Below, piece by piece: positions 7,045 to 24,652 of a DNA stretch of 64,000 bases (position 1 is its first letter; each line of letters begins with the position of its first letter). The notes beneath the pieces are model-generated. The model was not told the origin of the DNA and searched no databases. It was given only the letters and a program-made list of their open reading frames with translations. The DNA comes from an uncultured delta proteobacterium. GTDB lineage: Bacteria > Myxococcota_A > Polyangia > Polyangiales > Polyangiaceae. The stretch is from NCBI GenBank assembly GCA_963696385.1, contig CAVOKF010000004.1, positions 64,001 through 128,000 on the forward strand. Reading direction: 5' to 3'. A program made the position numbers and the translations under genes.

Positions 7045-7371
7045 CTATCCCCGAGGTTCGGTTGCGGTCAGGAGCGTGGCGAGCTCCTCGCGCATCGCGC
7101 GCCGGTCCACGACGAGGGACGGGATCGCTTGCTCGTCCGCCGTGGCGATGGCGTGCGTCAAACGATCGATGGCGGCCTGGAGGGCGGCGACGCGTCGATC
7201 GCGATTGCCCATTGAGGGGCGCTCCATTTCGGGATTGCCCAATGATTGCCCGACGCAGGGGTCAATTCGTTCGATCTCGTGAGATCTCGGATCGTCGATC
7301 GGGCTTGTTTGCCGGATATCCGTGTTTTTGTGGGACTGCCGATCAGCTTTAGGTTCCGCCGCCGCAAGGCG
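7045..7371 (-). pseudogene. Detached C-terminal tail of a tyrosine integrase, in frame with the integrase at 23182-24652 across the tRNA core
   Basis: Frame opens just beyond the core and reads RLAAAEPK-ADRQ...GQSLGNPE...RVAALQAAIDRLT...RRAMREELATL*. RLAAAEPK also occurs, in the same codon phase, in the 23182-24652 integrase. Confidence 0.6.
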
Positions 7372-7478
7372 CGTGAGTGCGGACTTGTTCCCATGCGTTT
7401 TTTACGGGACTTAGTATGCTCTGCGACCCGCCCCCATTGACCCCCATCGGGTAATCGACGGGTATTCATCGGGTAATC
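7203..7478 (+). mobile_element. att-like site: degenerate 3' half of tRNA-Leu flanked by arm-type repeats
   Basis: 7348-7371 is identical to 23260-23283 (24 bp), with decayed similarity to about 7396. GATTGCCC at 7203, 7233 and 7244; CGGGTA(A/T)TC x3 at 7448-7478 with 11-bp period. Confidence 0.8.
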
Positions 7479-7703
7479 ACGGTACGCGTGGGGTCGTTCG
7501 ATGTCGAACCGAACCGTCGTCGGGCACGAGCCGCAAGGATTTCACGCGCCTACCGTTCGCCGCACTTGCCTCGGAGAGCCATGCTGCGAGTTGGCCTCTT
7601 TGCCACGGCGGACGGCTTTCGCCCCGGCGGGTCACGCGTCCGCGCTTGCGAGCACGGACGCGAGCTTGGCCCGGGCAGGTAGCCTCACGATAGGCTCTTC
7701 GAC

Positions 7704-8438
7704 GTGCAGACCTCGTGGCAGCCTCTCCTGGGCTCGCTGCTTGCGGCGGCGGTCGTCATCGTCGTTCAATCCTGGCGGCTCCGGTGCAAACGCGAGATCG
7801 CGCGGGCATACCATGCCGCTGCGACACGCGAAGAGAACCGTCGGGCCGGCGCGCAAGCCCGCACCCGTCGCGCTGTGAGCGGCGAGCAGGGCGCCTTCGC
7901 ACTCTTTGAACGCGCGGGTTACGAGGTGCTCGAGCGCCAAGTTCCCGGGTCCTGGACGTTGCTCGCCGACGGCGAGCCGGTCACGTTCGGTTTGCGCGCC
8001 GACTATCTCGTCGAACGCGAGGGCCGACGCTACATCGCCGAGGTGAAGACGGGGCGGGTGGCTCCCCGCCTTGCCCACGGTCCCACGCGAAGACAGCTCC
8101 TCGAATACAGCGCGGCATTCGAGGTTCACGGCGTCCTCCAGGTCGCGCTCGGCGGCCGCACGGATCTTGTGGTTCAAGCGGACCGGCGACGCGGACTGTG
8201 CTTGGCGAGCAAGCGAGCCATGACGGCTTCCCCGTCCTGCTCGGTGCCTGCGTCCTCGCGATCCCGACGGTCGAGTTCGTCCGCCATCCATTGCGGGACA
8301 GTTCCCTCGTGCGCATTGATGGCCTCGAGCTCCTCCGGATGTTTGGCCATGTCGTTCGCGAGGGCGTCGGCGAGTTCGGGCGCGAGGGCTTCGCCACGCT
8401 CGAGGCGTTCAGCGGCGAGACGAAGTGCGGCGGCCTGA
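7704..8438 (+). CDS. Membrane-anchored PD-(D/E)XK nuclease-like protein (C-terminus after about 8150 probably read-through)
   Basis: N-terminal hydrophobic segment, GE..A, ADYLV..AEVKT and RRQLLEY motifs. Confidence 0.6.
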   Translation: MQTSWQPLLGSLLAAAVVIVVQSWRLRCKREIARAYHAAATREENRRAGAQARTRRAVSGEQGAFALFERAGYEVLERQVPGSWTLLADGEPVTFGLRADYLVEREGRRYIAEVKTGRVAPRLAHGPTRRQLLEYSAAFEVHGVLQVALGGRTDLVVQADRRRGLCLASKRAMTASPSCSVPASSRSRRSSSSAIHCGTVPSCALMASSSSGCLAMSFARASASSGARASPRSRRSAARRSAAA

Positions 8439-8461
8439 AGACGGGGATCGTGTACGGACAT
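8174..8461 (-). CDS. Addiction-module-type antitoxin-like protein (no adjacent toxin)
   Basis: QWMADELDRR motif in a small acidic protein. Confidence 0.55.
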   Translation of the reverse strand: MSVHDPRLQAAALRLAAERLERGEALAPELADALANDMAKHPEELEAINAHEGTVPQWMADELDRRDREDAGTEQDGEAVMARLLAKHSPRRRSA

Positions 8462-8701
8462 CGCTTCAACTATAACGACTGTGCCGGGGGCCGCACGATA
8501 AGCGCACGCGCCGGGGCGTCGCTTGGTGCGAGCAAGCTGCCCTGGCAAACCACGACAAGCTGCCTGGCAAACCACGAGACGATGAACGCATCGCTCGAGT
8601 TCCGGCTGGCTTCATCGACGACGAACGCCCGGAGCTTGGACTCATTCGACCACCGGTCACTTGTTGGGCCCGAGTAAAATAACAACGGAGCCGGACCCGA
8701 G

Positions 8702-8762
8702 TGTCACCCATGTCAATCGAACGGGTGTTACCCATGTTCCCGGACAAAAGTGTTACCTATGT
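8702..8762. repeat. Three TGT(C/T)ACC(C/T)ATGT repeats; probable IS481-type element end
   Basis: Copies at 8702, 8726 and 8751 (24-25 bp spacing), resembling IS481-family terminal repeats. Confidence 0.6.
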
Positions 8763-8769
8763 ACGCGCT

Positions 8770-10245
8770 CATAGGTAGGATCTTTATTTCCCGAGTGATC
8801 TCGATCGCTTACGTGCATAGTGCACGAATTGGATAGTCAAAGGCATCGGGGATTCTCTAGACGCTGTTGTGAGACAACGCGAAAGGAGACCCCCGATGCA
8901 CGGATCAAACAGTACACGCGCCGGAGTCGGCGTGTATGCGAAACGGCTTACGGAAGTACTCGGCGAGGAGCAGGTGACCGCGATCGCGAGACGTAGCGGC
9001 TGGCTACGGCGAGTGCGCAAGGTGATGCCGCTGGCGATGGTCGTGGCGGTGCTGTCGACGCTCGGGTCGGGCCACGCCAAGTGGTTGGCCGATATTCTGC
9101 GGACGTTCCGGAAATTCGCGGGCCTTTCGCTGCGATATAAGCCCTTTCACAACCGGCTCGCGCAAGCGTCCTTTCCAGAGATGTTTCGGATGCTGCTGGA
9201 AGCGACGGTACAGAAGATGAGCCAGCCGGTTCTGCACGCCGTGTCCCCCAAACTGTCGACCTTTCGGGACATCGTCATTCACGACGGGACGTCGTTCGCG
9301 CTCAAGGACGACTTGAAACGCACATGGCCGGGCCGCTTTACGAAAATCTCGCCAGCCGCCGTGGAACTGCACGTCACGATGAGTCTGCTCCAAGACGATG
9401 TGCGCATCGTCGCCCTGACGGCCGACAAGGAGACCGAGCGAACCTACCGTCCCGAGGCCGCGAGTCTTCGCGAGCGGCTCTTTCTGGCCGACCGAGGGTA
9501 CGAGGAGCGAAAATTCTTTTTCGACGTCGACCAAGCCGGCGGCGCCTTCATCGTCCGCGGAACCAAAAACATTCGACCCACCATTCGGGCAGCTTTCGAC
9601 AGCGCCGGCAAATCCATCCCCAAGTTGCTCGGCCAGAAGTTGAACTGGGACCTGCTTCCGGCCCAGACGGTCGATCTCGACATCGAATGGCTGGCGAATT
9701 CATTCGTGTATCGCGGCCGAATTGTGGCGATCTACAAGCGCGGCAAGCGCAACGCGAAGACGTTCGTGTACCTGCACAGCAACCTCGCTCGCAAGCGCTT
9801 CTCCGCCGCCGACGTGGCCGGCTTGTATCGCCTCCGCTGGCAGGTGAAACTCCTGTTCAAAGAGTTCAAATCCCACGCCAACCTTCATGCCTTCGATACG
9901 GGCAAGGCCGCTATCGCGAAAGCGATGATATGGGCGAGCCTGCTCGCAGCCCTTCTGAAACGCTCGCTCGCACACTTCGCGGAAGCGTCGCTGGGGGTGG
10001 AGCTTTCGACCCAGCGAGCCGCCGCGTCCGGCAAGCATTACTTCGACGATGTCCTCCGCGGCCTTCTCGACTCGCCGCGCCAACTACGTCGTGCCCTCGC
10101 CGAAACGCTCAAGTTCCTCGATTCCAACGCGCGCCGCGCTCATCCTGCTCGCGATCGAAAGCGCGGACGTCTCGCTATGGGCCTCGAGCCACTCGCACTT
10201 GTGTGGTAGCGAGCGCCATCCCGAATCCCTAAGTACCAACTTATG
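8770..10245 (+). mobile_element. IS4-family insertion sequence (IS186-like ends) with 10-bp target duplication
   Basis: Imperfect IRs CATAGGTAGGATCTT / AAGTACCAACTTATG; TGTACGCGCT at 8760-8769 and 10246-10255. Confidence 0.9.
8869..10209 (+). CDS. IS4-family DDE transposase with the catalytic Glu replaced by Lys
   Basis: IHDGT, LADRGY and YRLRWQVKLLFKEFK, where the YREK motif has K in place of E. Confidence 0.9.
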   Translation: MRQRERRPPMHGSNSTRAGVGVYAKRLTEVLGEEQVTAIARRSGWLRRVRKVMPLAMVVAVLSTLGSGHAKWLADILRTFRKFAGLSLRYKPFHNRLAQASFPEMFRMLLEATVQKMSQPVLHAVSPKLSTFRDIVIHDGTSFALKDDLKRTWPGRFTKISPAAVELHVTMSLLQDDVRIVALTADKETERTYRPEAASLRERLFLADRGYEERKFFFDVDQAGGAFIVRGTKNIRPTIRAAFDSAGKSIPKLLGQKLNWDLLPAQTVDLDIEWLANSFVYRGRIVAIYKRGKRNAKTFVYLHSNLARKRFSAADVAGLYRLRWQVKLLFKEFKSHANLHAFDTGKAAIAKAMIWASLLAALLKRSLAHFAEASLGVELSTQRAAASGKHYFDDVLRGLLDSPRQLRRALAETLKFLDSNARRAHPARDRKRGRLAMGLEPLALVW

Positions 10246-10538
10246 TGTACGCGCTTGCTTGTTGGCGAAGGTTTCATCGGCGCTCCGTCATTCGACCGCG
10301 ACGCGGCACCGTGCGCAATCCTCGCCTGGTGCCGACCATCTCGAGGCGTTGCTCGGAGTCCCGTGGTGCCGCGCTCGGACGGTCCGACCTCCTTCGGAAT
10401 CGCCTGGCGGGCCTTCGCATCGCCAGACGCTTGTCCGCCGCCGTGCGTCTCAGCCATTCGCGACCGGCTTGCGACCGCCGTATTCGGCGGTTTTCTTAGT
10501 GCGCCCGGCAGGGCCAAAGCGCCGCCGACTCACGCGGG

Positions 10539-11087
10539 TTACTGGCAGGGGCAGCAGTAATAGCCGTTGCCCCCCGGGGTCCCTCCAACCCCGACGCAGC
10601 CCTCGGGCGGGTTCTGGTACGTCCACGTCACCTGGCCTCCGTCGGGCAGCGATGGTACCGGCGGCCCCCCGCACGAGACAGCGTACTGAGTCGGGGCGCA
10701 CTTGTTCGTGCACGTCGCCGTCCCCGTGCTTGAACTGCACCCCGAGCAACTTGTCGGGTCGCTCGAGATACAAAGCTGCGTCAGCCCCGATACGGGTCCC
10801 GACGGTCCCTCTCCCCCTCCGCTCGCTGACGGTCCCCCTTCGCATACGACCCCCACGGGATACTGGCACTCGACGAACGCGCGCCCGACGGTGCACGTGC
10901 CCGGCCCACCATCATCCAGGTATGCAGGCCAATTGCACTGGGCGCTTGATTTGCTCGGTTGGGTTGGTTCGCTGGACTGGCTGCCGTCCGCTGTGCCCGA
11001 CGTTGCGGTCGATCCGGTTTCCCCGCCACAGCTGAGCGTCCACGCGACGATCGTCATAAGCACCATCGAGGGGGGAGTCCTCAACAT
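10539..11087 (-). CDS. Cys-rich putative lipoprotein
   Basis: TLSCGG lipobox-like motif, Ser/Thr linker, many Cys, ends YYCCPCQ. Confidence 0.65.
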   Translation of the reverse strand: MLRTPPSMVLMTIVAWTLSCGGETGSTATSGTADGSQSSEPTQPSKSSAQCNWPAYLDDGGPGTCTVGRAFVECQYPVGVVCEGGPSASGGGEGPSGPVSGLTQLCISSDPTSCSGCSSSTGTATCTNKCAPTQYAVSCGGPPVPSLPDGGQVTWTYQNPPEGCVGVGGTPGGNGYYCCPCQ

Positions 11088-11282
11088 GGGCGAAGCGTAG
11101 CGCGCCGACGAGGCGCATCGCCATCGACAACGTTTGACCGAACATGAGCGTCCGCAGCCCGTCGCGTGCCGCTTGCAGAATGGTCCAGGCTCAACTCACC
11201 CAAGGGGTGCCATCTTCGCCGTCCGTCATGCAGTCGTTGGCGCCTGTGAATCGGTTAGACCTGCCCTGCAGGCCAGTCGCTC

Positions 11283-11468
11283 TTACGGGCGCAACACACG
11301 AAGCTTGACCGCCCTTGCGAGCGCCGCTTGACGCTCGTCGTAAGTTATGAGGGTGCGACAGCCGAGCTCCACGGCGCTGGCGACGTGCAGCACGTCAAGC
11401 GTGCGTGTGCCGACCACCGGCGTGTGGAGGCGGCTAAGCTCGGTCGCACGATGAGAGCGCGTCTCCAT
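11283..11468 (-). pseudogene. C-terminal remnant of a PIN-domain toxin
   Basis: RTLDVLHVASA..LITYDERQ with no N-terminal PIN part. Confidence 0.7.
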
Positions 11469-11760
11469 CTAACCGCTGGCGGGGGGCCCAGGGACCCGGC
11501 GCCCGAGCCGCCGTGACGCGGCCACCTGCTCGACCGCGCTACCCCGTCCTCGTCGCACGGAGAGATGTCGAGACCTGAGGTCTGCGCAGCTCTGCCACGG
11601 GCGGCCGCTCCCGGCCGAGCCTGGCGCGGGGCGAGTCGCATGAAAGACAATTGAACTCAAATAGTTACGTTCACTCGCGCCGCGTTCTTGTTGTCATCAC
11701 GTCATCATCACGTAGCCATGATGACTGGCCCGCGGGCACGAAGAGAATTATCTTTGGCGT

Positions 11761-11955
11761 ATGCCCCCCGCGCGAAAGCTCGACGCTCCCCCCGTCGCCG
11801 ACAGGCGCGAAGGGCTCGACGTGCCGTTGTCCGCGGAAGCTCGGGCCGCGCTGGACGCCGGGCTCGAGAGCGCACGAGCCGACCTCGCCAGCGGTCGGCC
11901 GTTGACGGCGTGGGCCGACTTCACCGCGTTCGCCGTCGGCGACGACGACGAGTAG
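11761..11955 (+). CDS. Small acidic antitoxin-like protein
   Basis: 64 aa, ARAALDAGLESARADLASGR; lies convergent with a RelE-like gene. Confidence 0.45.
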   Translation: MPPARKLDAPPVADRREGLDVPLSAEARAALDAGLESARADLASGRPLTAWADFTAFAVGDDDE

Positions 11956-11997
11956 TCGCTCACGGAAAGTCGACTTTCCGTCGATGCGCTGCGACCC

Positions 11998-12306
11998 CTA
12001 CGGGTGCGGCGTGATCGCGACGACGTAGATCCACCCGCGTGCCTGGGGCGGGTAGCAGAAGAAGATGCGGTACGCGCCTGGCGTCTTGTTCTGCGCGTAG
12101 GCCACGAAGAGCGTGCCGCCATGGGGGCACGTCTCGCCGACCATAGAGTGCACGTTCAGACCCCGGTGGTTCGGGTCGAGCTGAAGCCGCCCGAGCGCCT
12201 TCTTGACGGCCTTGAGCCGGCGGAACAGGCCGGCGTCGCTCTCGAGCGCCTCGAGCTGCTCCTTCGCAGCTGGGGAGCGGTCGAGTTGGTACGGAGGGGG
12301 CGGCAT
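11998..12306 (-). CDS. RelE/ParE-superfamily-like toxin
   Basis: 102-aa basic protein, VKKALGRLQLDP..PGAYRIFFCY..IYVVAITPHP. Confidence 0.6.
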   Translation of the reverse strand: MPPPPYQLDRSPAAKEQLEALESDAGLFRRLKAVKKALGRLQLDPNHRGLNVHSMVGETCPHGGTLFVAYAQNKTPGAYRIFFCYPPQARGWIYVVAITPHP

Positions 12307-12589
12307 GGCGAGATCAAGATAGCGGACGAGGTCGACGGCTCATTTTAGTGCTTCGCCACAGGCATGTCGGACCGGGCTGCGACCGTCGGCGACACGACCG
12401 TGGCCAAGGTGGGCCCGGCGGCGGTATCGGGCTACCGGGTTGGTGCGGAGCGACGGCGCATCGTTTCGAGTTCTTGGCGCATCGCCTGGCGCTCCGTGGC
12501 GAGAGCGGCGGCTGTTTCTGCGTTATCGGCTAATCCAAGTAACCGTGTCAGGTTCGTAATGGCTATTTCGAGCTCGACGAGGCGCTCCG

Positions 12590-12822
12590 GATTGCCATAC
12601 GATTGCCATACAGCGGGCTCATCTGGGGAGATTTGGGGGGGTCTCAGATCGTTGATCGGGCTTGTTTTTTCGATCGCCCATGCAATCGTGAATTCGTGGT
12701 CCGTTTGGAAATCATGTGTACCTGCAAGGGTACCGAGGGTTCGAATCCCTCTCTCTCCGCATAGTTAGACGCGATTGTCTGAGTTTTTACTTCGCTCGCG
12801 TGGGGCAATCCGTGGGGTAATC
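12590..12822 (+). mobile_element. attP-like site containing the 3' half of tRNA-Ser(GGA) at 12705-12759, with arm repeats on both sides
   Basis: TTGGAAA loop, variable arm and GGTTCGAATCC T-arm present, 5' half absent. GATTGCCATAC x2 at 12590-12611 and CGTGGGG(C/T)AATC x2 at 12799-12822. Confidence 0.85.
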
Positions 12823-13971
12823 GCAGATCTGCAATGGCCTCGTCGAGGGATTGCAGCGGGCCCAGCGCGAGCTCGGTCCACGTGCGCGCGGCGCGCCGAT
12901 ACCGATTGATCATGACGCTCGATCGATGGCCCGTTCGGTCCGCAACCCACGTTCGAACAGCGCGGGACGCGTCACCCCCGCGTCGTGAAGGTCGCGTCGG
13001 AGCTCGTCGGCCAAGTGAAACGTATAGAGCGAGGCGGAGCTGCCCGGCTCGCAGAAGACGAAGTCGTCCGGAGTCGCGTTCGGGTGGTGCACCGCCTTCC
13101 ACGTCCGCAAGGCGCGCGCGACGCCCGGATCGAGCGCCCAACCGCGCGGATCGTCGGTCTTGTTTTCATCGAGCATGATGTGCCCGCAGCCGAGATCGAG
13201 GTCCTTCCAGCGCAACCCGCCGAGCTCGTCGCGACGTAGGCCCTCGCGCGCGAGCATTCCGAAGAAGAGACGCCGGACGAGAGCCACCTCGCGGCACGCC
13301 AAGAGGGCGCGGTCCTCGTCGGGATGAAGATGCGTGAACGCCTTGCTCGGCTTGACCTTCGGCAGCCACCCGCGAGGAATGGGGTTTTCCTTGATGTGAC
13401 GCGCCGGGTAGACCGCCAGCGCCAGCACACGCCGCACGACCTGCACCACGTGACGGCGCGTCGAGGCCGACTTGCCCTCGGACATGTTCGCCATCACCAG
13501 CTCCGCGCCGTCGAACGTGAACGCGTCGAGCGGGATGTGCCCGACGTGAGGGTTTACGTAGAGCCGCAAGAACCGCTCGTCGGCCTCGTGCTTTTTGGGC
13601 GGCGCGTGGTCGGGAAAGCGCTGTTCGAGCTCGCCATCGGTCCACTGCTTGGCGAAGGCTGCAAACGTGGGCACGTCCACCTGAGCTTCGACCGTGCCCG
13701 AACAGAGGCCTTCGACCGCGGCCACGAACGTGTGCCAGGGTCGTCCGGATCGCGCTTTCGCGCCCAATTCAAGCATCTTGGGCACCTCGTCAAGGCGGCC
13801 GGCGCGTCGGCGCCGTGCCGCGACACGTGCCAATGCGGTCGTGCGTTCCTCGGCGGCGACCTCGACCGCGCACGTCGGAAGTACGAAGCGTCGCTCGCGC
13901 CCCTCCATGGTAATCCGGGCGGCGAAGCCGCTCGCGAGACGCCGGACTTCGCCTTTGGCCTCACGGGGCAT
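12644..13971 (-). pseudogene. Tyrosine integrase (Int C) with an internal deletion of the HxxR region
   Basis: GLRRDE and DENKTDDPR present; LFERG jumps in another frame to WVADRTGH..NRY, so HDLR is missing; that frame runs through the tRNA-Ser fragment. Confidence 0.85.
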
Positions 13972-14320
13972 GGCGGCTCCCGCGACTGCGCGCCCCTTCG
14001 CGCCCGGGACGACCGCCTCTCCATCGGCCCGACGAAACGTTGTGGCGAGGCCAGGGGGAAAGGACGACGTTATTCATGCTTCACTTCCCGCCGTTCCTCG
14101 ATGAATTGGTCCGCCGGGCGGCGCGAGGGCTCGTGCAAGCGCACTTCACCTTTGGGACCAAGGGAGGCGGTCTCGGCGGGAAGAGGCATGAGCATGCCGG
14201 TCACCATCGCACGAGCATAAAGCGTTTCCCCGCCCTTGCCCCATCCCTGTCTCATCGCAGTCCGCAGGGATGTCAGCGGGATCGTGCGACGCCCGGCGAA
14301 GAATTGCGGCGGTTGAGCCG

Positions 14321-14686
14321 TCAGTGTCCGACGGGCAACCTGCGCAGGCGGTAGCGCGTGTCCTCGACGCTCACGATCGCTCCCGCGTCGAGTGCGCCGG
14401 CAGCGTTCTCGAGGACGACGGCGAGGCGCGCGATTAAATGGTCCGTACGCGTATTGCGAAGTCGAAAGACGATGGCGCTCGTCTTCGACTGCGAAGTCGA
14501 CACGATTTCGGTGAAATCGAGATCCCAAGTGAGCACGATGCGGTCCTCGGCCCGTGCCTTGGCGAAGATGGCGTCGTCGGCAAGTCGATGGAGGCCTTGG
14601 TCGCGAAGGTGCACGGCGTCGTGTCCGTACTCGATCAGCCAATGCACCACGCGCGGGCCCACACCCATGTCGACAAGAAAGCGCAC
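14321..14686 (-). CDS. DUF5615-family PIN-like toxin
   Basis: MRFLVDMGV..GHDAVHLRD..DDAIF..RIVLTWDLDF. Confidence 0.88.
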   Translation of the reverse strand: MRFLVDMGVGPRVVHWLIEYGHDAVHLRDQGLHRLADDAIFAKARAEDRIVLTWDLDFTEIVSTSQSKTSAIVFRLRNTRTDHLIARLAVVLENAAGALDAGAIVSVEDTRYRLRRLPVGH

Positions 14687-14689
14687 GGG

Positions 14690-14908
14690 CTACTCGGCCG
14701 AATGAACCTCTTCCGTCGTGAGCCAGGCCGCGTACTCCAGGGCTTGGCGGACGTCCTGCTCTTCGAGATCCGGATGGTCCCTAAGAACCTCCGCAGTGCT
14801 CGCCCCGTGCGCAATCGCGCCTACGATGACCGAGACGGGAATACGCATCCCGCGGATGCACGCGCGGCCTCCGAGAACGTGCGGTTGGAACGTGATGCGG
14901 TCGAACAT
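14690..14908 (-). CDS. DUF433-family antitoxin
   Basis: RIT..P.VLGGRACIRGMRIPV..DVRQALEYA. Confidence 0.9.
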   Translation of the reverse strand: MFDRITFQPHVLGGRACIRGMRIPVSVIVGAIAHGASTAEVLRDHPDLEEQDVRQALEYAAWLTTEEVHSAE

Positions 14909-15007
14909 AACGGACGCATTCACTGTAGCACCGCGGCGGCGTGACATCGGCCACCCTAGAGCCGCTCATCGGTATACGTCCCGAACCGGCGCACCGGTCA
15001 CTCCGCG

Positions 15008-15027
15008 CTTCTTCGCGTCGTTCTACA
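15008..15027. mobile_element. Orphan IS21-type end matching the end of the 25118-28880 element
   Basis: CTTCTTCGCGTCGTTCTACA versus GTTCTTCGCGTCGCTCTACA at 28861-28880 (18/20). Confidence 0.65.
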
Positions 15028-16982: not shown

Positions 16983-17418
16983 CTACTAGCTTAGGCGTGG
17001 ACTCGGCTACGAGCGGGCTCGTGGCCGCCTCGGCATGCGAGGTGTCGGCGAGTAGTCGGGGCTGCGAAGCGTACACAGCGGGCGCGCAGGCCGTGCAAAG
17101 AGCCTCGAAATCCGTCTCTTCGCGGAGGCCGACGCGTTCTGAAACGCGGAAGGCAGCGTCGACGTGGCCGCAAAGTCGGGCGAGCCCGAAGGCCTGGCCC
17201 GTCGACTCTGCCGGGGTGAACAGCAGGGCATGCCTACGGCCACGCGAAACGGCTGTCCAGACGTCCGGCGCCATCCGATTTGGGTCCGGCTCCACTCGAG
17301 TCGAGAGCGTTGGTTGATCGCGTATCCGAGCGGCGAGTAGCCAGTCGAAAGGGTATCGGTCAACGAAGAGCCGCCGGAAACCGCCGCGGTCACATATCGC
17401 ATCTTTATCGCATCTTAG

Positions 17419-18273
17419 GTGCGTCCGTTGTCATTGAAAGTGCAGCGAAGCTAGCTGCCGTTCTTGCAAGTGAAAGTCTTGCCGATGGAATCAACCAGTT
17501 ACCATCGTAGTTATACCCAGCGCCGTGAAGGGCGATCGGATCGGCGAAAGCCTGGGAGTAAAAGCCCCCGTCGGCTGTCTGCAGGCCGGATCCACACAGG
17601 GGGGCGAGCCAGTCGTCAGGTCGTAGCGAAAGCGAACCGTACAAGCCTCGAAATCAACGGCGCGGCTGAAGTGGATGCCGGGAGTGTCGAGAGCGCCGAG
17701 CCGTTTTTCAGTCGGCGAAGGCCAAAGTCGTCGGTGAAGAACTGGTTCATGCAGCCGACGAGCTCTCCGGGGTCGCAGGGGACGACATGACGGCACAGAA
17801 CGGTCAGCAAAAGCTCGGAACCACTCGCGGGCAGCCCAGGCGCACCCGCACAGCAAAGGCATCGCGTATAAGCCGCCGAGCGGCGAAGTCGCGATGTGCC
17901 GGCGAGTGGGGCGGATGGGGCCGAATAAGCGTTGATGGACCGGGACACTATAACCCGGACCGGAGCGAGGGCCCCTGGGGTAGAGCGGGGTTTGCCGCTC
18001 GAACAGCGGTACTCCACCCGCCAGCGTCCCTCGACACAGAGCGAGGACCGGCGACTGGCTTGGAGAGTACGAAGGGCGCAGACAAACCGCGCGAGGCGAC
18101 GGGAATGCCAGGTGCAGGCTTAACCGGAGTTGCGTGCGGGCAGGTCCCGCCTGACAAGCTGGCCTTCGAGCCGTACTGGGGAAAACTCGCCGTACGGAAT
18201 CTTAGGGGGGGCGGGAGGAAACGGGAGCACGGCTGCCGCTAAACGGGCACGAAGCGGGAAACCGGCGACACCC
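17419..18273 (+). ncRNA. ORF-less group II intron, 3' end of domain VI apparently missing
   Basis: GTGCG 5' end, domain I- and III-like segments, 34-nt domain V GAGCCGTACTGGGGAAAACTCGCCGTACGGAATC at 18168-18201 followed by a G-rich DVI start; no RT ORF. Confidence 0.8.
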
Positions 18274-18383
18274 GCGTGGGGCATGATCGATTCGGCGAGG
18301 CGCAGAGGGCGGCGGGACTGGACGAGGCGGACTTCGTAGACGGGGATTTTCGTAAGCGGAACTTTGGGGGCTGTCGTGTCCAT
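18274..18383 (-). pseudogene. N-terminal fragment of a RadC/JAB-like gene
   Basis: KIPVYEVRLVQ resembles short RadC N-termini; the ORF runs into the intron end. Confidence 0.45.
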
Positions 18384-18578
18384 CGGGGGAACCTGCTTGG
18401 GTTGGCTTCGAGCCGGTGGCTTCCGGCCCGTTCGCATCAAGCGGGACGCCGCGACGCTCCTCGGCATGACGGGCTGCATTTCCGGAGGGCTCCCGCGTGC
18501 GGGAAACCGCGAGGCCCGGAAGGCGCTCGTCGAGATCGAGGCGCGCGTTCAGGCAAGGGCAAGGGGGCTTAAGCCTCA

Positions 18579-19677
18579 ATGAGCAACGACCTCCCCTCTC
18601 CTCTCTCTGCCGAAGCCTCGACGAAGGCGGAACCGCCATCGACGGCGCTCGCGGGGCCGGGTGCGGTCGTCATCCGCGCGCCGGGCGGGTTCGCGATGGC
18701 GCTTCCGGCGGTCATCGCCGACGCCGGCGAGCAGGCAGCTACGACGTTCGAGTTTTTTACGGCGCGGATTCCGAACGCGCACACGCGCCAGGCCTACGGC
18801 CGCGCGGTGGCGTCCTTCTGCGAGTGGTGCGAGGCTCACCGCGTCACCCTGCGCTCCCTCGACGCGCCGACCGTCGCCGCCTATCTCGGCGAGCTGCGCA
18901 ATGCGGATGGGGATGGCGATGGGCTGTCTCTCGCCTCGGTCAAGCTCACGGCCAGCGGCTTACGCCACTGGCTCGACTTCCTGACCGAGCGCGGCGTGCT
19001 GCCGTTCAACCCTTCCCTCTCCGTGCGCACCGATCGGCTCGTCGTGACCGAGGGCAAGACCCCGGTCATGGAACACGAAGAAGCCGCGAGCGCTCTTTGC
19101 CTCGCTCGATGCGATCGCCGCCGCGGGAGGCGACCTGCTCGCCCTGCGTGATCGCGCGATGTTCGCGGTGATGTTGTTTGGGTTCGTGCGCCTGAGCGCC
19201 GTGTGCCGGATGCTCGTGCGCGACTTCGAGGACGAGAGCGCGACGGCCTGGCTCGTGCTCCATGAAAAGGGCGGCAAGGAGCGACGAATCCCCTGCCATC
19301 ACCAGACGCGCGAGTATCTGCGCGCCTACATCGAAGCCGCCCGATTCAACAGGCCGCCTGCGGGGGGCGAAGCCTCGCAGAGGCGTAGTCCCCTGTTCCA
19401 GAGCGCGCCGGGGCGCACGGGGGCGCTCTCCGGCAAGCCGATCGCCAGCGGCAAGGTCTGGGAGGCGGTCAAGCGGCGCTGCAAGGCGGCGGGCCTGCCC
19501 TCCTCCATCTCGAACCATTCGTTCCGGGCCACGGGCATTGCGCTGCACCAGGAGAATGGCGGTAGGCTCGAAGATGCCCAGGCCCTGGCCGGGCATGCCG
19601 ATGCGCGCACCACGCGGCTCTACGTCCGCAAGGAGCGCAAGGTCGCCCAGGCCGAGGTCGAGAGAGTACAACTGTGA
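18579..19677 (+). pseudogene. XerC/D-like tyrosine recombinase with a +1 frameshift near 19085 (possibly a sequencing error)
   Basis: N-terminal NAHTRQAY; RDRA..VRLSA, EKGGK, HSFRATG, GHAD..TTRLY. Frame break at EHEEA|RALFASLD. Confidence 0.85.
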
Positions 19678-19974
19678 GCGTGGACGTCATCACTATCGCG
19701 TTAGGGAGCCTCGCCGTTTCCGCCGTGTCTCTCGGGGTGTCGGCGACGAATGCCTGGCTGACGCTCTGGCGCGGAAACGCGTCGGTTTCATGGGCACATC
19801 GACAACGCGCGACCGCCCGACCCTTCGCCGCTATTCCTCGTCGCGGAGCTCCCCAAAGGAAACCGAGAACCGGTCCACGAGATCGAAGCCGAAAAGAAAA
19901 CAACGCCGTGACACACTTCCTCAAGCGCCCGTAGCCGCCATGTCGCCCTGGCTGATATCGACATTGCCGTTGTT

Positions 19975-20427
19975 TTGCCGTTGTTAGGTATAGTCGTCGG
20001 AGCGATCCTCCAGTTCTTGCTGTCCAAAACGCATGAGGCGGAGAAGCAACGCCAATCCTTGCGCGTTGCAGCGTACGTTGACTACCTGCGCGGCGTCACC
20101 ACGACGAGTCAAGCGCAAAAACGCGGAGACAAGCCGGAAGAGGCGAAGGGCAATGCGTTGATGGCCGATGCAAAGGCCAGAATATGCGTGTACGGCACGG
20201 ACGAAACCGTCAAAGCGTTGGCCGAATTTTCGAGAGTCGGAGCTAAGCTATCCACGCGCGAGGGAGTGGATGCGTTCTTATCGTTCTGCGTGGAAATGCG
20301 CCGCGAAATGAGAGGCGGGGATTCCCCCAGGGACGACATTGCACGGGTGCTGTTCAACACCACAATCGCTGACTTTGCGCCACGCGGCGCAGCCGCTGAC
20401 TCCGAGGTGCCGAAGAAGCTCGTGTGA
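19975..20427 (+). CDS. Hypothetical membrane-anchored protein
   Basis: N-terminal TM segment, helical body, lower GC than the surroundings. Confidence 0.6.
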   Translation: MPLLGIVVGAILQFLLSKTHEAEKQRQSLRVAAYVDYLRGVTTTSQAQKRGDKPEEAKGNALMADAKARICVYGTDETVKALAEFSRVGAKLSTREGVDAFLSFCVEMRREMRGGDSPRDDIARVLFNTTIADFAPRGAAADSEVPKKLV

Positions 20428-20521
20428 ATCCCCCCAAGAGCTTCACGCGAGCATCGTTGGCGTGCCTCCTATGCGCACCGGCAGAGACTTGACGTTGCTG
20501 CAGCGAAACTGTACAGTCTAG

Positions 20522-20842
20522 ATGTATTTACTGAGTAGTTCCATGCAGACCGGCAAGAACAGCAATCCCATTGTCGTCTCGGCTCTCTCGGTCCGCACCG
20601 GCTTCGGCAAGCTGTTGCGCCGGGTCGAAGACGAGCACCGCTCCCTCGTGATCGAGAAGCGCGGCACGCCCAAGGCGGTGCTGCTCAGCATCCGCGACTA
20701 CGTGCGCCTTGCCACCCCCGAGCCGGAAGTGCTCCGGGTGATCGGCGAGGAATCCAAGCGCAAGGGCACCGACAAGCTCACTTCGCGGCAGATCGACCAG
20801 ATCATCGCATCGGCGCGCGGCAAAAAATCCAAGCGCGGATGA
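20522..20842 (+). CDS. Phd/YefM-family antitoxin
   Basis: VRTGFGKLLRRV..LVIEKRGTPKAVLLS. Confidence 0.85.
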   Translation: MYLLSSSMQTGKNSNPIVVSALSVRTGFGKLLRRVEDEHRSLVIEKRGTPKAVLLSIRDYVRLATPEPEVLRVIGEESKRKGTDKLTSRQIDQIIASARGKKSKRG

Positions 20843-21178
20843 TCGCGCTGCGGCTGGTGGTCGACACGAACATCATCGTGTCGGCGGCGCTCAAGCCGGA
20901 CGGGCTGCAACGTACTGTGCTGCTGCTCGCGCTCTCCAAGCCGGCCACGCTGTACGTGAGCGAAGCGATCCTGGCGGAATACACGCCCGGTTACGCCCGC
21001 ACGCGTCCTCCAGGTGGCGCGCGACCCTGACGACAACAAGTTTCTGGAATGCGCCGACGCCGCGCGCGCCGACTATCTCGTGACCGGCAACCAGCGGCAT
21101 TTTCCGGAGTTCTGGAAGAAAACCAAGGTGATTACGTCCCGCGAGTTCGTCAGCATCGTCGCGCCCCATCTGACGTAA
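20839..21178 (+). pseudogene. PIN-family toxin with an internal deletion/frameshift
   Basis: VVDTNIIVSA..ILAEY, then RDPDDNKFLECA..YLVTGN in another frame; the middle is missing. Confidence 0.8.
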
Positions 21179-21227
21179 TCGATCCCGCGAAGCGTGACGC
21201 TTCCACCGGCGCAGTATCCTTTGCAAA

Positions 21228-21743
21228 TTGAATACCTCACGTTCAATTTGCGAGGATGCTGAGGGGGTACCTCTCCGTGCCTCCACCCTTCTCTGCGGCT
21301 TAAGTCCCGAGCCCGAAGCCGCCCAAGCGGCGAGCGTGACTGGCCGTCCCTCCGCCCTCGCCACGCTCTTCATCCACGGCGACGCCTGGGCCTGCGTCCA
21401 TGCGCGACCGGCGGTGTTCTTGGCCGCCGTCGATCTCGGCATAGCCCGGCAGCAGCACGGCTTGGGCGAAGGCGACCCTCGCATCGTTCGCGACGCGATG
21501 AATGCCCCGCTGCTTGTCTTGGACGACCTGGGCCAAGAGGCGGAATTTGGCAGCCCCGTGGTCGCGCACGTCATCCAGCACCGATACGACCGGGTGAGGC
21601 CGACGATCGCGACCACTGGTTTGAGCGTCGAGCAGCTCGTCGCCCGCTACGGGGCGGGAGTCGCGAGGCGACTGATCGAGACTGCGGGCGGCGCCGTCGT
21701 GCTCAAGCTCCGAAGCCATGGCGAGGCGGGACCGGCTCGATGA
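21228..21743 (+). pseudogene. C-terminal fragment of a DnaC/IstB-like ATPase (phage replication type)
   Basis: LLVLDDLGQE (Walker B), HRYD..PTIATT..RYG..VARRLIE; no Walker A. Confidence 0.65.
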
Positions 21744-21930
21744 TACGCCAACGCAAGCGAGCCCTTCGGGGTTCAAGCTCGCACGCCAACCCGGACTTCG
21801 ACTGGAGGTCAGCACGCCGGCGGGTATCCTTGCGGGCGGCACGCTCTCGCCCGCACCCCTCTGTCGTGCAAGTCGCTTGGATGTTCCATCAACCCGCACT
21901 CACGACCCTCTCTTCACCACGGGGATAGCC

Positions 21931-23319
21931 ATGCCGCGCCACGCAACCGGTCAAGTTTTGGAGTATGCGAACGGCTACAGCGCACGGATCCGGATCGGGG
22001 CCGGCGCGAAGGGCCGGCGCTCGTTTCCGATCGCGGCGCGCGACAAGGCGGCGGCCGAGGAGCGCCGGGCCCTGCTGGCGAATCTCGCCGAGCGTTTGCG
22101 GGGCGCAGCCGGCCCGGATGAGATCGCCCAACTGCTGGAGATCGCGGGCCAGGCGCGATCGGACAAGGCTTTGCGGGCGGCTCGCGACGCCGCCGAAGCC
22201 ATCGCCGCGGGGACGACAACACGCGCGGCGGCCGCCATGGCGCCGACGTTCGAGGTCTTCGCCAAAGAGTGGACGGACGGTGCCCTGCACAAGAAGCACC
22301 CCGATCACGTCAAGGAGAAGCGGACCGCGTACCGCGACAGCCAGCTTTTGCGGCTCTACGTCTTGCCCATCACGAAGGACATTCGTCTCCCCGACTTCGA
22401 GCTCGAGCACGCGGAAGCAGTCATGGCCAGCTTGCCCGGGGGTCTTGCGGCGGCGACCCGACGCCACGTCGCGCAGGTCATCTCGCGGGTCATGCGGTTG
22501 GCCGTCTACCCGGGCAAGTGGATCGCCAATAGCCCGATCCCCCGCGGCTGGTTGCCTCGCGTGGGCGACCCCAAGGCCAAGGAGTGCCTCTTCCCGGACG
22601 AGGACGCGTGCCTTCTCGCCGGCCGATCGATCGAGCCCGACAAGGACGGCATTCCGATCGTGCGGCGTTTTGCGTATGGCTTCCTGATGCGCGAGGGCAT
22701 GCGCACCGACGAGATGGCGGGGTTGCGGTGGCGCGAAGTGGATCTCGAACGGGGCCGCGTCAACCTGGACGAAAACAAGACCGATGATCCGCGCGACTGG
22801 GACCTGCGGCCCGATACGGCCGAGGCGTTGCGCCGTTGGAAGGAGAGGAGCGAGCCGCACACGCAAGCGCGCGACCACGTGTTTGCCGAAGAGGGCGTGC
22901 CCGTGAACGTCGAGCACTTGGCCGAGCAGCTGCGCCGTGACCTCTGGCGGGTCGGGGTGCGCCGTCCGCAGCTGCACGAGAGCACCAAGGGCCGGCAGCG
23001 TCTGCGGGCGCACGACCTGCGCGCCACGTTCGTCACGATCGCGCTCGCGACGGGCAAGACCGAGACGTGGATCAGCGACCGAACGGGGCACCGCTCCCAT
23101 GCGATGATTGAGACGTACCGGCGGCGGTCGCGCACGTGGAACCTGGGCGAGCTCGGCCCTATGTGCGAGCTCATCCCTGAGCTACAAAAGGGGGCTGATA
23201 GGGCAGCGAATGGGCAGCAAACTCACCGCACGGGTGGCGAAATAGGCAGACGCAGCGGATTTAGGTTCCGCCGCCGCAAGGCGTATGGGTTCGACTCCCT
23301 TCCCGTGCACTTTCAATGA
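21931..23319 (+). CDS. Tyrosine integrase (Int A), ORF reads through tRNA-Leu in sense
   Basis: Complete catalytic set: GMRTDE, ENKT, HDLR, TGH, ETY. Confidence 0.92.
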   Translation: MPRHATGQVLEYANGYSARIRIGAGAKGRRSFPIAARDKAAAEERRALLANLAERLRGAAGPDEIAQLLEIAGQARSDKALRAARDAAEAIAAGTTTRAAAAMAPTFEVFAKEWTDGALHKKHPDHVKEKRTAYRDSQLLRLYVLPITKDIRLPDFELEHAEAVMASLPGGLAAATRRHVAQVISRVMRLAVYPGKWIANSPIPRGWLPRVGDPKAKECLFPDEDACLLAGRSIEPDKDGIPIVRRFAYGFLMREGMRTDEMAGLRWREVDLERGRVNLDENKTDDPRDWDLRPDTAEALRRWKERSEPHTQARDHVFAEEGVPVNVEHLAEQLRRDLWRVGVRRPQLHESTKGRQRLRAHDLRATFVTIALATGKTETWISDRTGHRSHAMIETYRRRSRTWNLGELGPMCELIPELQKGADRAANGQQTHRTGGEIGRRSGFRFRRRKAYGFDSLPVHFQ

Positions 23320-24652
23320 CTTGTCGCGGTATCCTGTATTTTTTAGATAGGACGAATTGGGCAATCGTTGGGCAATCGTTGGGCAATCAACAATCGGCAT
23401 AATCCGTGCCAACGAACGAAGTTCCGGGATCGCAGCTTGCATGGGGGCGAGATCCCCCTGCTGCTGAGCCAGCCAAATTGCCGCGGTGCGTCGATATTTC
23501 GCCTTCATCGCATCGCCGTGGCCCGTGCGCTGCTGGCACCACTCCCAGGTGCGACCGCTCGCGAGGCTCACCGTGACGAACGTCGCGCGCAGATCGTGAG
23601 CGCGCATACGCAAGCGATTCTCGGATCCCGTAAACAGCTTGGAGCGCGCGATGCCCGCGCGCGCGAGATCTTCGCGCAGCTGGGCGGCCAGGTGATCGAC
23701 GTTCAAGCCCGCGCCTCGGTCGTCGACCAAAATCCGCGCATCCGATCTCGGTGACTTGAGGCGCTGCCGCCAGAGCTTCAGCGCCTCGAGCACGTCGGGT
23801 CGCATGTCCCACGAGCGGGGGCGGTCGGTCTTGTTCACGTCGAGGTCCAGCCGATTGTGGACGAGATCGGTATCGGCCCACGTTAGGCGCGCGAGCTCGT
23901 CGGTGCGCAGGCCCTCGCGCATCAGGAAGCCGTATGCGAAGCGCCGCAATAACGGCACCCCCACGCATCCGAGCAGGGCCCGGTCCTCGTCCGGGTACAG
24001 GCACTCTTTCGCCTTGTCCGGTGGCGCCCGGGGGAGCCATCCGCGCGGGATGGGGCTGACCTGGATCCACTTGCCCGGGTACACGGCGAGATGGAACAAG
24101 CGCGACATCGTCTGCGCGACATGACGACGCGTGCTCGTGGAGAGCTTCGCCGGCAGCGCCGCCATCACGCCCTCCGCATCCTCGAGCGTGAAGGTGTCCA
24201 GGCGCAGATCGCCCACGTGTTCGAGCACGTAGAGTCGCAGCAGTTCTTCGTCGCGCGGAGACGACCGCTTCTCGCGAACGTGATCCGGGTGGCGTTTCGC
24301 GAGCTGCCCCTCGGTCCACTGCTCGGCAAACGCGCGGAACGTCGGGGCGAGCTCCAGGGCGCGCGTGCGGCCGGCGCAGACCGCATCGACGGCGGCACAG
24401 ACCTCTTGCCAGGGGCGCCCAGCCCGCGCCTTCGCGGCCTCCTCCAGCAGGGTGGGGATCTCCGCCACGAAGCCCCCGAGGCGCAGCCGAGTAGCCATCA
24501 CCGCCAGCGCCTCTTTGCGCTCGGCCGCCTCGCGTTCGGAGCGGCACGCAACCAGCCCGAATTCTCGCCGGTCGCGCCCCTGAATCGTGATGCGCGCCGC
24601 AAAGCTGCCATCCGCCAAGCTGCATGAGTTGTCCGGTGGCTTGCTTCGGCAT
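23182..24652 (-). CDS. Tyrosine integrase (Int B), reads antisense through tRNA-Leu; +1 frameshift after codon 12
   Basis: GLRTDE, VNKT, HDLR, TGH, KY. The homologous start MPKQATGQ at 24652 is out of frame with ADGSFAARITI by one extra base. Confidence 0.88.
23228..23309 (+). tRNA. tRNA-Leu (anticodon TAG)
   Basis: Acceptor GCACGGG/CCCGTGC, anticodon stem GCGGA-TTTAGGT-TCCGC, long variable arm, GGTTCGACTCC; CCA not encoded. Confidence 0.95.
23357..23388. repeat. Arm-type integrase binding repeats TTGGGCAATC(G) x3
   Basis: 11-bp tandem repeat beside the tRNA; reverse complement matches GATTGCCC(AA) at 7233-7251. Confidence 0.75.

Follow-up and report, generated by a model that had tools for sequence, protein, structure and literature searches.

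To our knowledge, only a few bacterial cases are known in which integration rewrites the C-terminus of an integrase (Mx8 and Mx9). Integration of the myxophage Mx8 swaps the C-terminal ~100 residues of Int. In SSV-type integrases the split separates parts needed for activity, and in large serine integrases a C-terminal coiled-coil motif, separate from the catalytic domain, acts in directionality control; we know of no case in which that motif is physically removed. The attP of Mx8 has been described as lying within int, and integration as giving the gene a new C-terminus (PMC6070905; PMC4383910). For the suicidal integrases of SSV type, the cited descriptions place attP within the integrase ORF and have integration partition the gene (PMC5861418; PMC7253208). 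The Islander survey describes tRNA islands marked by a displaced tDNA fragment, catalogues tandem arrays, and puts 159 of 3919 islands in the minority class that displaces a 5' fragment (PMC4383910).

The window analysed here is a 64,000-nucleotide stretch of a 6.94-Mb Polyangiaceae genome, a metagenome bin of 8 contigs with 96% completeness. It contains tRNA-Leu(UAG) (23228..23310, plus strand), the sole one in the genome. A 24-mer corresponding to tRNA positions 33-56, from the anticodon loop to the variable arm, was located by match search at 7348..7371 (core copy 1) and, within the tRNA, at 23260..23283 (core copy 2), both on the plus strand and both where the original prediction had put them. 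These were the only matches in the window when up to 2 mismatches were allowed (0 in 100 shuffles) and the only copies in the whole genome; they are direct repeats, perfect over 24 bp. A genome-wide search for a second tRNA-Leu, a third core copy or a tail to the right of Int B found none, although a missing piece may be unassembled in a bin of this kind.

Two integrases converge on the tRNA. Int B lies on the minus strand (23182..24696; PF00589, E = 1.7e-9) and has the integrated, IntX-like form. Translation bore out the claim that it reads antisense through the 24-mer: the frame passes through KVHGKGVEPIRLAAAEPK and stops 25 aa further on. The C-terminal 33 aa are an antisense translation of the tRNA, and the last 25 residues after the core correspond to the antisense of the tRNA 5' half and its upstream flank. 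A P' arm of three GGGCAATC copies in 11-bp phase (23359..23388, plus strand) falls within the Int B coding region (...DCPTIAQRLPN...). The start proposed earlier, ATG 24652, does encode the conserved MPKQATG but in another frame than the gene body, from which it is parted by a frameshift near 24619 (~codon 12); the open frame of 504 aa begins at GTG 24696. Int A (21718..23319, plus strand; PF00589, E = 2.1e-15; conserved start MPRHATG at ~21931) reads in the sense direction into the tRNA-Leu and ends 9 nt past it. Its identity to Int B is 49% (alignment A1), and G003, the closest relative, contains a copy with 97% nucleotide identity. A phrog_1 integrase match was also obtained, and alignment A3 shows no variation at the R, HxxR, H and Y positions.

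The tail frame starts at core copy 1 on the minus strand (7045..7347, 100 codons plus stop; GC by codon position 0.69/0.50/0.73). As predicted, it reads RLAAAEPK in the phase of Int B and stays open for 100 codons up to the stop at 7045-7047. Its first ~45 codons form a linker that runs over the P-arm repeats, and its last ~50 codons encode a conserved helical module containing RVAALQAAIDRLTHAIATADEQAIPSLVVDRRAMREEL. The tail frame was without a family match in Pfam, NCBIfam and PHROGs. The prediction had also noted that stops just upstream leave this frame without an N-terminal part of its own. The stops are there, 13 and 16 codons upstream of the core, but the DNA immediately ahead of the core is not unrelated sequence: in the alignment it is a degenerate colinear copy of the tRNA 3' part, spacer and arm-repeat stretch of Int B.

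The P arm of this upstream site consists of three GGGCAATC copies on the minus strand (GATTGCCC on the plus strand) at 7203..7251. On the other side of the core we found more than host sequence. A degenerate tRNA 3' part (7372..7398, plus strand; repeat family D10, alignment A5) leads the copy, with 17 of the 30 positions after core copy 1 matching the genuine tRNA 3' part, and the colinear alignment places a P' arm at 7449..7478 (plus strand) made of GGGTAATC, GGGTATTC and GGGTAATC in 11-bp phase. This arm begins 78 nt after core copy 1, and that of Int B begins 76 nt after core copy 2. The triple 11-bp-phased pattern has exactly two matches in the window, these two arms, and none in shuffles. 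The window holds 10 occurrences of the motif GGGCAATC/GATTGCCC, where 2.9 would be expected, and the matching arm repeats said to face the core at both sites were recovered with three copies each (7203-7251, minus; 23359-23388, plus). Because the 7348 site has a P' arm of its own, we count it as a whole attP-like relic, comprising P arm, core, degenerate tRNA 3' part and triple P' arm. The relic lies at the right end of a decayed relaxase/ParA mobilisable element; a broken relaxase, ParA and IS66 lie at 49.6-57.6 kb of the contig (C4), left of the window. No integrase homology was left between 7372 and 12000.

Full-length integrases carrying such a tail exist in relatives. Among the 120 Int B homologues listed, 19 have a helical tail of one of three types at their end (15 of them served as seeds of the tail profiles). 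The tail-profile search returned four longer proteins, each a PF00589 integrase (512-597 aa) whose C-terminal end carries the module. In the natural fused homologues, Int, a translated tRNA fragment and the tail form a single ORF. All 23 fused proteins are recorded on contigs of 17.4 kb or less; contigs >20 kb hold 0 of the 19 fused homologues vs. 37 of the 101 tail-less ones among those listed (hand count; Fisher one-sided p = 4e-4). Of the 120 listed homologues, 15 run on into the tRNA-Leu 5' half and end as Int B does. The helical tail is thus shared with full-length homologues in nature. In the AlphaFold model of one of these, the fused homologue P0150 (583 aa), the body is mostly at pLDDT ≥88 (10-residue blocks), residues 451-521 are below 50 (about 34-43), and helices at 523-539 and 542-565 reach 73-87. 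Going by this model, the stretch between body and tail is disordered and the cut leaves the catalytic domain whole. This separates the family from the SSV-type integrases of archaeal viruses and plasmids: the host is bacterial, the core lies ~70 codons past the catalytic Tyr (KYRRT in Int B), and the modelled linker would be cut outside the catalytic domain.

In G008 the order is tRNA, an Int reading into the tRNA, ~11 kb, and a tail that reads inward from a fragment of tRNA positions 33-83; the element encodes a relaxase as well as ParA-like and DprA-like products. G028 likewise has the integrase at one end of the element and the tail at the other. At Int A-type junctions in relatives, tRNA positions 1 to ~43 are duplicated; the Int A-type ends diverge from the tRNA after position 41-43 into linker and tail, and at 4 Int A-type loci the Int A frame continues past the junction into a tail. 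In both orientations, the frame from tRNA fragment to tail is the one that the cognate integrase type uses when it runs through the tRNA. The convergent order Int A, tRNA, Int B recurs in G014, G015, G024 and G028. Contiguous chromosomal Int-attP-tail arrangements occur in G005, in a C7 relic and within the window at site C (12441..14073, minus strand), an attP-type relic of a third family member (basis including repeat family D6). Site C consists of tail C (12441-12677), two copies of GATTGCCATAC, a 3' fragment of another tRNA (~12715-12760), GGGGCAATCC/GGGGTAATCG, and a truncated Int C (12913-14073; PF00589, E = 1.6e-8). Judged by sequence, the tail is a genuine C-terminal module of a Polyangiaceae tyrosine integrase family whose attP lies inside the 3' coding region of int.

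These results support the parallel with Mx8 drawn in the original prediction, namely an attP within the int coding region, and tail-bearing full-length homologues were found. In both systems the enzyme is a tyrosine integrase from a myxobacterial element and attP follows the codon for the catalytic Tyr, and in Int B too the C-terminus has been exchanged for host-encoded residues. The C-terminal region of Mx8 Int (...TGLEPV...) appears to read as an antisense T-arm translation, comparable to KGVEPI here. However, Mx8 Int shares only 26% identity over 293 aa (pairwise E = 2e-9), a tblastn search against the phage collection did not list Mx8 among its matches, and the three tail profiles gave no significant match to Mx8 Int. 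The organisation is that of Mx8, in a different subfamily, and the elements resemble relaxase-bearing mobilisable islands of 12-20 kb rather than phages. With respect to Islander, the Int A-type elements belong to the 5'-fragment minority class. Unlike the Islander cases, the two classes here have homologous integrases and approach a single tRNA-Leu from its two sides, and the fragment at 7348 lies across the tRNA from where a 3' fragment belongs.

Our preferred account of the locus, with a probability of roughly 0.62, is a decayed array of tRNA-Leu elements in which the tail derives from a different element copy than Int B. On this account, the sole tRNA-Leu(UAG) takes in small integrative elements, probably mobilisable ones, on both of its sides, and the tyrosine integrases of these elements have attP within the 3' part of their coding region. 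Before integration, the int gene reads catalytic domain, long disordered linker and C-terminal two-helix tail, the linker being encoded by att DNA (P' arm repeats, the translated tRNA fragment with the crossover core, P arm repeats). Integration cuts the gene in the linker: the integrase keeps its catalytic domain and ends in a few host-encoded residues, following the Mx8 IntP to IntX principle, and the tail stays at the opposite element end as a short orphan frame. Int B is an integrated-form gene further damaged by its frameshift, and the 7045-7347 tail sits in an attP-like relic without an integrase body, most likely as the leftover of another decayed element rather than as Int B's missing half. 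The most economical history would be a tandem or nested array in which the present tRNA was re-formed between Int A and Int B by an Int A-type element that brought a tRNA 5' part. That tail and Int B match in phase would reflect common descent of two att modules, not one cut gene. This order of events is inferred, and so is any control of recombination direction or specificity by the tail. An array history requires at least two unseen deletions, because the genome search turned up no second tRNA-Leu, no third core copy and no right-hand tail.

The simplest form of the original prediction, that the tail is Int B's own C-terminus cut off by one integration, was not supported: the tail lies across the tRNA from Int B, the wrong side (in G008 it is at the far element end, beyond int and away from the tRNA), and it meets a non-host P' arm at the junction. 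The relic also ends a relaxase/ParA element, and in G003 a 1-nt deletion between core and tail breaks the core-to-tail frame. What stands is the formal outcome of recombination between the cores. The scripted join of 24696..23260 to 7347..7045 (start taken at 24696) gives a single ORF of 579 aa without internal stop, comparable to natural fused lengths such as that of P0150. A reversible switch could still be built on this join if a chromosomal attP(B) with full-length Int B had been interrupted at the core by a 16-kb Int A island, whose excision restores the 579-aa protein. The perfect direct repeats, the in-frame join of natural length, the matching arm motifs on the outer flanks, the contiguous chromosomal Int-attP-tail loci, and the position of Int A at the inner end by the core, adjoining the tRNA, with a family that uses the same anticodon-loop crossover region, all suit such an island. 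Its inner left end (7372-7478) has B-type P' arm architecture instead of an Int A-type end, and the fragment here covers tRNA positions 33-56, whereas Int A-type elements in relatives leave 1-43. The interval is moreover a patchwork in which IS elements, toxin-antitoxin pairs and a split XerC-like gene stand beside Int C and its attP; Int A runs sense into the tRNA, and Int B is frameshifted. The joined form sought as evidence of excision was on no contig listed for 4 public runs, although contigs are unable to show rare forms. We regard this island as unlikely, and a prophage-like switch role for the 16 kb is not supported.

An independent gene of 55-60 aa is less probable still. The tail would then start at ATG 7212 or 7227, encode a helical protein acting in trans like a directionality factor, and share a frame with the core only incidentally. 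The 55-aa reading (7045..7214, minus strand; ATG at 7212-7214 in the in-frame start list) has GGAG ~10 nt ahead of its ATG, and P0002, a 55-aa gene call, is 96% identical to the tail with the same Met start. A search of 1.84 billion representative proteins gave 29 matches, every one a short gene call (55-175 aa); the 28 genomic matches in 401 genomes are likewise all within open frames of 52-241 aa, and conservation is limited to ~45 residues. Integrated forms, however, necessarily yield short calls, and a single-sequence search is too insensitive for fused forms. The fused homologues and profile matches (19/120 and 4/4) run against the earlier proviso that the tail might always be a separate gene with its own start, as does the agreement of the fragment-to-tail frame with that of the cognate integrase in both orientations. 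The core-to-tail comparison with G003 (8 non-synonymous vs. 3 synonymous differences) is without a sign of purifying selection, and ATG 7227 is missing from G003. Even so, this rival is compatible with the preferred array account, in which a detached tail could still be expressed. We give hardly any credence to mis-joined repeats in a metagenome-assembled genome, in spite of the 8-contig bin and a region full of repeats and IS elements. Contigs from independent public runs bridge the relic site as in the window (X1 record 1, 6825-7772, 0 differences; X3 record 17, 6000-7462) and the tRNA site as well (X1 record 7, 22117-24013; X3 record 22, 21584-25000). X1 may be the source sample, and G003 has both junctions too.

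In the decayed-array account, the locus is probably a relic, an accumulation of dead elements of this kind, and its in-frame match is no evidence of a working switch. The C-terminus-rewriting arrangement itself is common across a family of Polyangiaceae island integrases, with a conserved tail module unrecognised by Pfam, NCBIfam and PHROGs. For annotation, short helical ORFs by tRNA fragments and integrases running through tRNA genes are best read as two halves of one gene family. A wider, doubtful reading is that the mobilisable islands of Polyangiaceae have in common a directionality device that is modular and detachable. Here att DNA would double as code for a disordered linker, for both orientations of the tRNA and in more than a single frame, tethering a conserved two-helix tail of at least three sequence types; integration would remove the tail and lock the element in, and hybrid array junctions would rebuild full-length integrases, through which neighbours at one tRNA, here tRNA-Leu(UAG) with elements on both sides, could turn the mobility of one another on or off. 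Int B would then be re-armed when the two 24-bp cores of this window recombine. By analogy in working only with the coiled coil of the large serine integrases, which belong to another enzyme superfamily, the helical C-terminal element could choose att pairs. If the tail governs direction or partner choice, this would explain the stabilisation of islands after integration, and an integrase with or without its tail would be a simple handle for myxobacterial genetic tools.

As counter-points to the preferred array account we note two features of the repeats. The three GATTGCCC copies left of core copy 1 and the three GGGCAATC copies right of core copy 2 are one motif inverted, the relation that P and P' arms of a single attP should show, and in the relic's own P' arm the motif is the one-base variant GGGTAATC. 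The perfect 24-bp identity, set against 17/30 in the adjacent nucleotides, looks more like a recombination product than even decay. Within the 16 kb, an IS element (8760..10245, plus strand; DDE_Tnp_1 transposase at 8869-10206, Pfam) is a late insertion: in run X3 one contig passes directly from 8759 to 10246, and the element is covered at high depth.

The 24-mer TTTAGGTTCCGCCGCCGCAAGGCG was found at 7348-7371 and 23260-23283 (two matches in a search of the window allowing up to 2 mismatches, none in 100 shuffles), with no further copies across the 6.94-Mb, 8-contig genome. The second copy corresponds to positions 33-56 of the tRNA-Leu(UAG) gene (23228-23310); no other of the 50 tRNA genes detected in the genome is a tRNA-Leu with this anticodon. 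The tyrosine integrase Int B (long frame 23182..24696, minus strand; PF00589, E = 1.7e-9) reads antisense through this tRNA as ...KVHGKGVEPIRLAAAEPK and stops 25 residues on. At the upstream core the same phase reads RLAAAEPK and then stays open for 100 codons, with the stop at 7045-7047; upstream of the core, this frame (the tail) is closed by stops at a distance of 13 and 16 codons. The arm motif GGGCAATC/GATTGCCC occurs 10 times in the window vs. 2.9 expected, with three copies left of the first core and three inverted copies right of the second. Scripted joining of 24696..23260 with 7347..7045 gave a single ORF of 579 codons. The 24-mer pair, the in-frame tail and the matching arms of the original prediction, which saw a split Int B and a C-terminal switch here, were thus confirmed. 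An antisense 444-aa ORF across the tail (6018-7352, plus strand) was dismissed because it has no family and a non-coding GC pattern.

The start that had been assigned to Int B, ATG 24652, needs correction. It is the conserved start (MPKQATG..., cf. the related protein P0032) and is out of frame with the gene body, with a frameshift near 24619 between the two; the 504-aa frame begins at GTG 24696 with 28 unrelated residues. The frameshift is probably real, since P0030, a 504-aa cluster representative 98% identical to Int B, opens with the same unrelated N-terminal residues. A contig of the public sequencing run X1 covers the frameshift site and shows no difference.

Int B has 270 relatives at E ≤ 1e-20, and C-termini were classified among 120 listed ones, 2 of which carry source names pointing to Polyangiaceae. 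Fifteen of the 120 read RLAAAEPK and then SAASA..., the antisense 5′ half of tRNA-Leu, and are, like Int B, integrated forms. Nineteen of the 120 run past the IPEL motif via a variable stretch, in which a tRNA fragment is often translated, to a helical C-terminal module that comes in three sequence types and ends within ~30 residues of the stop (15 of these fused relatives are seeds of three tail profiles, and 4 were found by those profiles). A single-sequence search of 1.84 billion representatives with the window tail gave 29 matches, all 55-175 aa. We had counted these short-only matches as evidence against fusion and dropped that argument after the profile and Int-side searches gave fused forms; the search is insensitive, and short calls are what integrated forms are bound to yield. 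A profile built from the 29 matches (alignment A2) and searched among longer proteins had 4 matches; these are all integrases with PF00589, 512-597 aa long, in which the module lies at about residues 456-578. Int homologues that carry the tail are therefore present, e.g., P0150 (583 aa) and P0151 (581 aa), both ~40% identical to Int B, and the prediction is not overturned on this point. Among 401 whole genomes of the order, 15 had matches to the tail profile, at 28 places in total and every one in an open frame of 52-241 aa.

By their 'longest contig' values, all 23 fused proteins lie on contigs of at most 17.4 kb and 37 of 101 unfused relatives on contigs above 20 kb (0/19 fused vs. 37/101 unfused on >20-kb contigs: Fisher one-sided p = 4e-4, a hand count in which the clusters are not independent). 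Such short contigs fit a location of the fused genes on free elements similar in size to the 12.8-kb element integrated in the relative G008. No relative of the tail protein, used as a single sequence, was confirmed among 599 pattern matches in metagenomes, matches in the ESM Atlas were at chance level only (0.80), and Pfam, NCBIfam and PHROGs contain no family for the tail. The best phage-collection match to Int B was the integrase of L001 (KX853514, 'Virus Rctr16k'; 47% over residues 119-432), a partial 16.7-kb viral record from an enrichment culture; the remaining matches in that collection were all to mycobacteriophage integrases, at ~33% identity.

We modeled the natural fused homologue P0150 with AlphaFold (48-sequence alignment, mean pLDDT 81.6). 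The model has an N-terminal three-stranded sheet with helices, which we take to be an arm-binding-type domain, and a confidently predicted core-binding and catalytic body. Residues 451-521 have pLDDT below 50 (about 34-43) and are followed by two helices, 523-539 and 542-565 (pLDDT 73-87), and by a third, short one. The stretch encoded by att DNA is thus predicted to be a disordered linker, which would explain why sense or antisense tRNA translation in various frames is tolerated in different subfamilies.

According to the passages on Mx8 in PMC6070905, attP lies within int, and integration makes a new 3′ end and alters the properties of the integrase; a passage of PMC4383910 mentions this arrangement along with SSV. 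The organization of the present family is that of Mx8, and the claim that attP lies within int, with the tail as a C-terminal module, is supported at the family level by the fused and integrated forms. However, Mx8 Int and Int B share only 26% identity across 293 aa, and none of the three tail profiles matches the tail of Mx8 Int. SSV-type integrases also have attP in the ORF, as the abstract of PMC7253208 describes, whereas the cut here falls ~70 codons past the catalytic Tyr, within the part predicted as disordered for P0150. Text searches of an open-access library, too narrow to show that none is in print, gave no account of this Polyangiaceae integrase family or its tail module.

All 31 genomes searched within the genus, among them two unpublished ones used for no other result, carry the tRNA-Leu(UAG) gene, and partial copies of it are of two kinds, covering positions about 29/33-83 and 1 to about 43. 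In G008 the tRNA is followed by an Int B homologue (68% identity) reading into it, then ~11 kb, then a tail that reads inward from a 33-83 tRNA fragment. The genes of this element (MobA/VirD2-DUF3363 relaxase, ParA-like piece, DprA-like protein, GNAT, methyltransferase) argue for a mobilisable island, not a phage. A stop codon interrupts the G008 integrase. In G028 both element ends recur, each on a contig of its own, with integrase and tail open. The convergent integrase Int A (21718-23319, conserved start ~21931) reads in the sense direction into the tRNA 5′ half and is 49% identical to Int B (alignment A1). On the 5′ side, elements of the Int A type leave a second copy of tRNA positions 1 to 41-43. 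At four related loci (L067, L068, L069, and L072) the Int A-type junction runs on in the Int A frame into a helical tail; at L016 the tail is in the other frame, that of a different integrase subgroup. Islands with 5′ fragments are a known minority class (159/3919 in the Islander table of PMC4383910). Alignments spanning the Int A 3′ end, the tRNA and Int B were found in four relatives (G014, G015, G024, and G028), which makes the tRNA-Leu(UAG) of this genus a two-sided hotspot. Five partial tRNA-Leu copies (positions 1 to ~42) were seen in another relative (G007:C9:294757-547086), 108-252 kb from the tRNA on its 5′ side, suggesting a very large array of Int A-type islands. A 72% match of the tRNA flank in G006 to the sigma-54 activator was judged a likely paralogue, in the window's own genome the synteny anchors of G008 (prmA, hsp20) do not lie close to this locus, and tblastx of the relatives' loci against the window was discarded as swamped by GC-rich noise.

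In the standard geometry int separates the tRNA from the tail; the window instead has the tail 16 kb off, across the tRNA from Int B. Deletion between the two repeats would leave tail-core-Int B in the chromosome and a free circle bearing Int A. The first core also has flanks of its own. To its right is a degenerate tRNA 3′ part (17/30 positions matching, repeat family D10) and then a spacer, and a P′ arm GGGTAATC-GGGTATTC-GGGTAATC in 11-bp phase begins 78 nt past the core; the Int B arm, GGGCAATC three times, begins 76 nt past its core. This triple pattern has exactly two matches in the window, the relic and Int B, and none in shuffles. The two flanks align colinearly, and in the tail frame the relic reads LPDEYPSITRW...AY*VP*KTHGNKSALTRLAAAEPK vs. 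DCPTIAQRLPN...KVHGKGVEPIRLAAAEPK in Int B. The 7348 site thus forms a whole attP-like unit, and this stretch is a copy, now pseudogenised, of the 3′ end of an integrase gene. Homology to integrases ends at about 7480, and the three minus-strand frames of 7440-7720 hold no integrase remnant. A repeated gene (7704-8438, plus strand, weak PD-(D/E)XK match; 73-79% copies in six relatives) starts from about 7614 as a repeat, with an 89% copy of 7614-8130 at G000:C7:1336170-1336679 in the same genome; as a mobile or repeated unit, it may have taken the place of the relic's integrase. Left of the tail, C4:49.6-57.6 kb of the same contig carries IS66, a relaxase broken into two ORFs and ParA, in the same orientation relative to the tail as in G008, which suggests a decayed island that ends at the tail and has lost its integrase end. 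The closest relative, G003, has both junctions (90-99% and 97% identity), with a 1-nt deletion at codon 21 that disrupts the core-to-tail frame; its differences in the tail region are 8 non-synonymous vs. 3 synonymous, one of them in the stop codon.

Contiguous relics of the same kind were found elsewhere. In G005:C2 an integrase C-terminal domain, antisense tRNA-Leu and a tail form one 318-codon frame. At C7:1411661-1413035 of the window's own genome, an integrase truncated after RATFVT is joined directly, in a different frame, to a tail very like that of site C; this locus is what a deletion has left of a contiguous int-attP-tail gene. Site C, which belongs to a third family member, is an attP-type relic within the 16 kb between the cores, a contiguous tail-arms-tRNA fragment-arms-Int C pseudogene for another tRNA. 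The 16 kb also holds a split XerC-like gene, toxin-antitoxin pairs, a DDE_3 transposase and Int A, and an IS within it is missing from a contig of run X3 (8759 joined to 10246); the interval is a mosaic.

The wrong side, the attP-like unit of its own, the decayed island on the left, the mosaic 16 kb and the decay seen in the frameshifted Int B and in the broken tail frame of G003 together indicate that the tail at 7045-7347 is probably not Int B's own half. An unlikely alternative is that the Int A island was nested into a chromosomal hybrid attP. It is favored by outer arm motifs that are identical while the relic's own P′ arm is a one-base variant, and by a 24-bp core that is perfectly identical next to a poorly matching neighbour. 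An array history, moreover, has to assume that an earlier tRNA copy, the integrase of the left island and the tail of the right one were all lost in unseen deletions; the genome search found none of the three. We still favor descent: the inference about the integrase family is supported, and the split Int B switch at this locus is probably a coincidence of descent between two relics. The family-wide picture, with att DNA coding for a disordered linker, a detachable helical hairpin and two-sided use of a tRNA, is the more interesting by-product. Misassembly of the two sites, another doubt raised with the prediction, was not borne out when contigs of four public runs were compared with 6000-25000: those of X1 and X3, from different studies, read through the relic and through the Int A-tRNA-Int B junction in agreement with the assembly. 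No core-to-core joint was among the joints listed for the four runs, in contigs that lose rare forms and so would not reveal rare excision products.

The XerC-like integrase of the 16 kb is split over two adjacent plus-strand ORFs (SAM-like N domain 18579-19148, catalytic domain 19159-19674), and an IS21-type pair (IstB-like ATPase and rve/Mu-type transposase, 25518-27778, minus strand) lies directly right of Int B. Toxin-antitoxin modules of the island region are at 6270-6973 (PIN/Phd), 14324-14947 (DUF5615/DUF433), 20522-20839 (lone Phd) and 37824-38422 (HigB/HTH). A long repeat-rich ORF region at 39080-41900 (minus strand) contains a tandem duplication of 1604 nt (89% identity over 300 nt) along with numerous internal repeats of 114-147 nt, and beside it a 27-nt unit is repeated three times in tandem at 42067-42147. 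Outside the window, C4:7600-12450 encodes three further family integrases that share ~50% identity with Int B; two of the three converge on a divergent pair of tRNA-Ser genes (cga, 10993-11080, minus strand; gga, 11217-11304), by which GATTGCCC occurs twice at C4:10932-10950.
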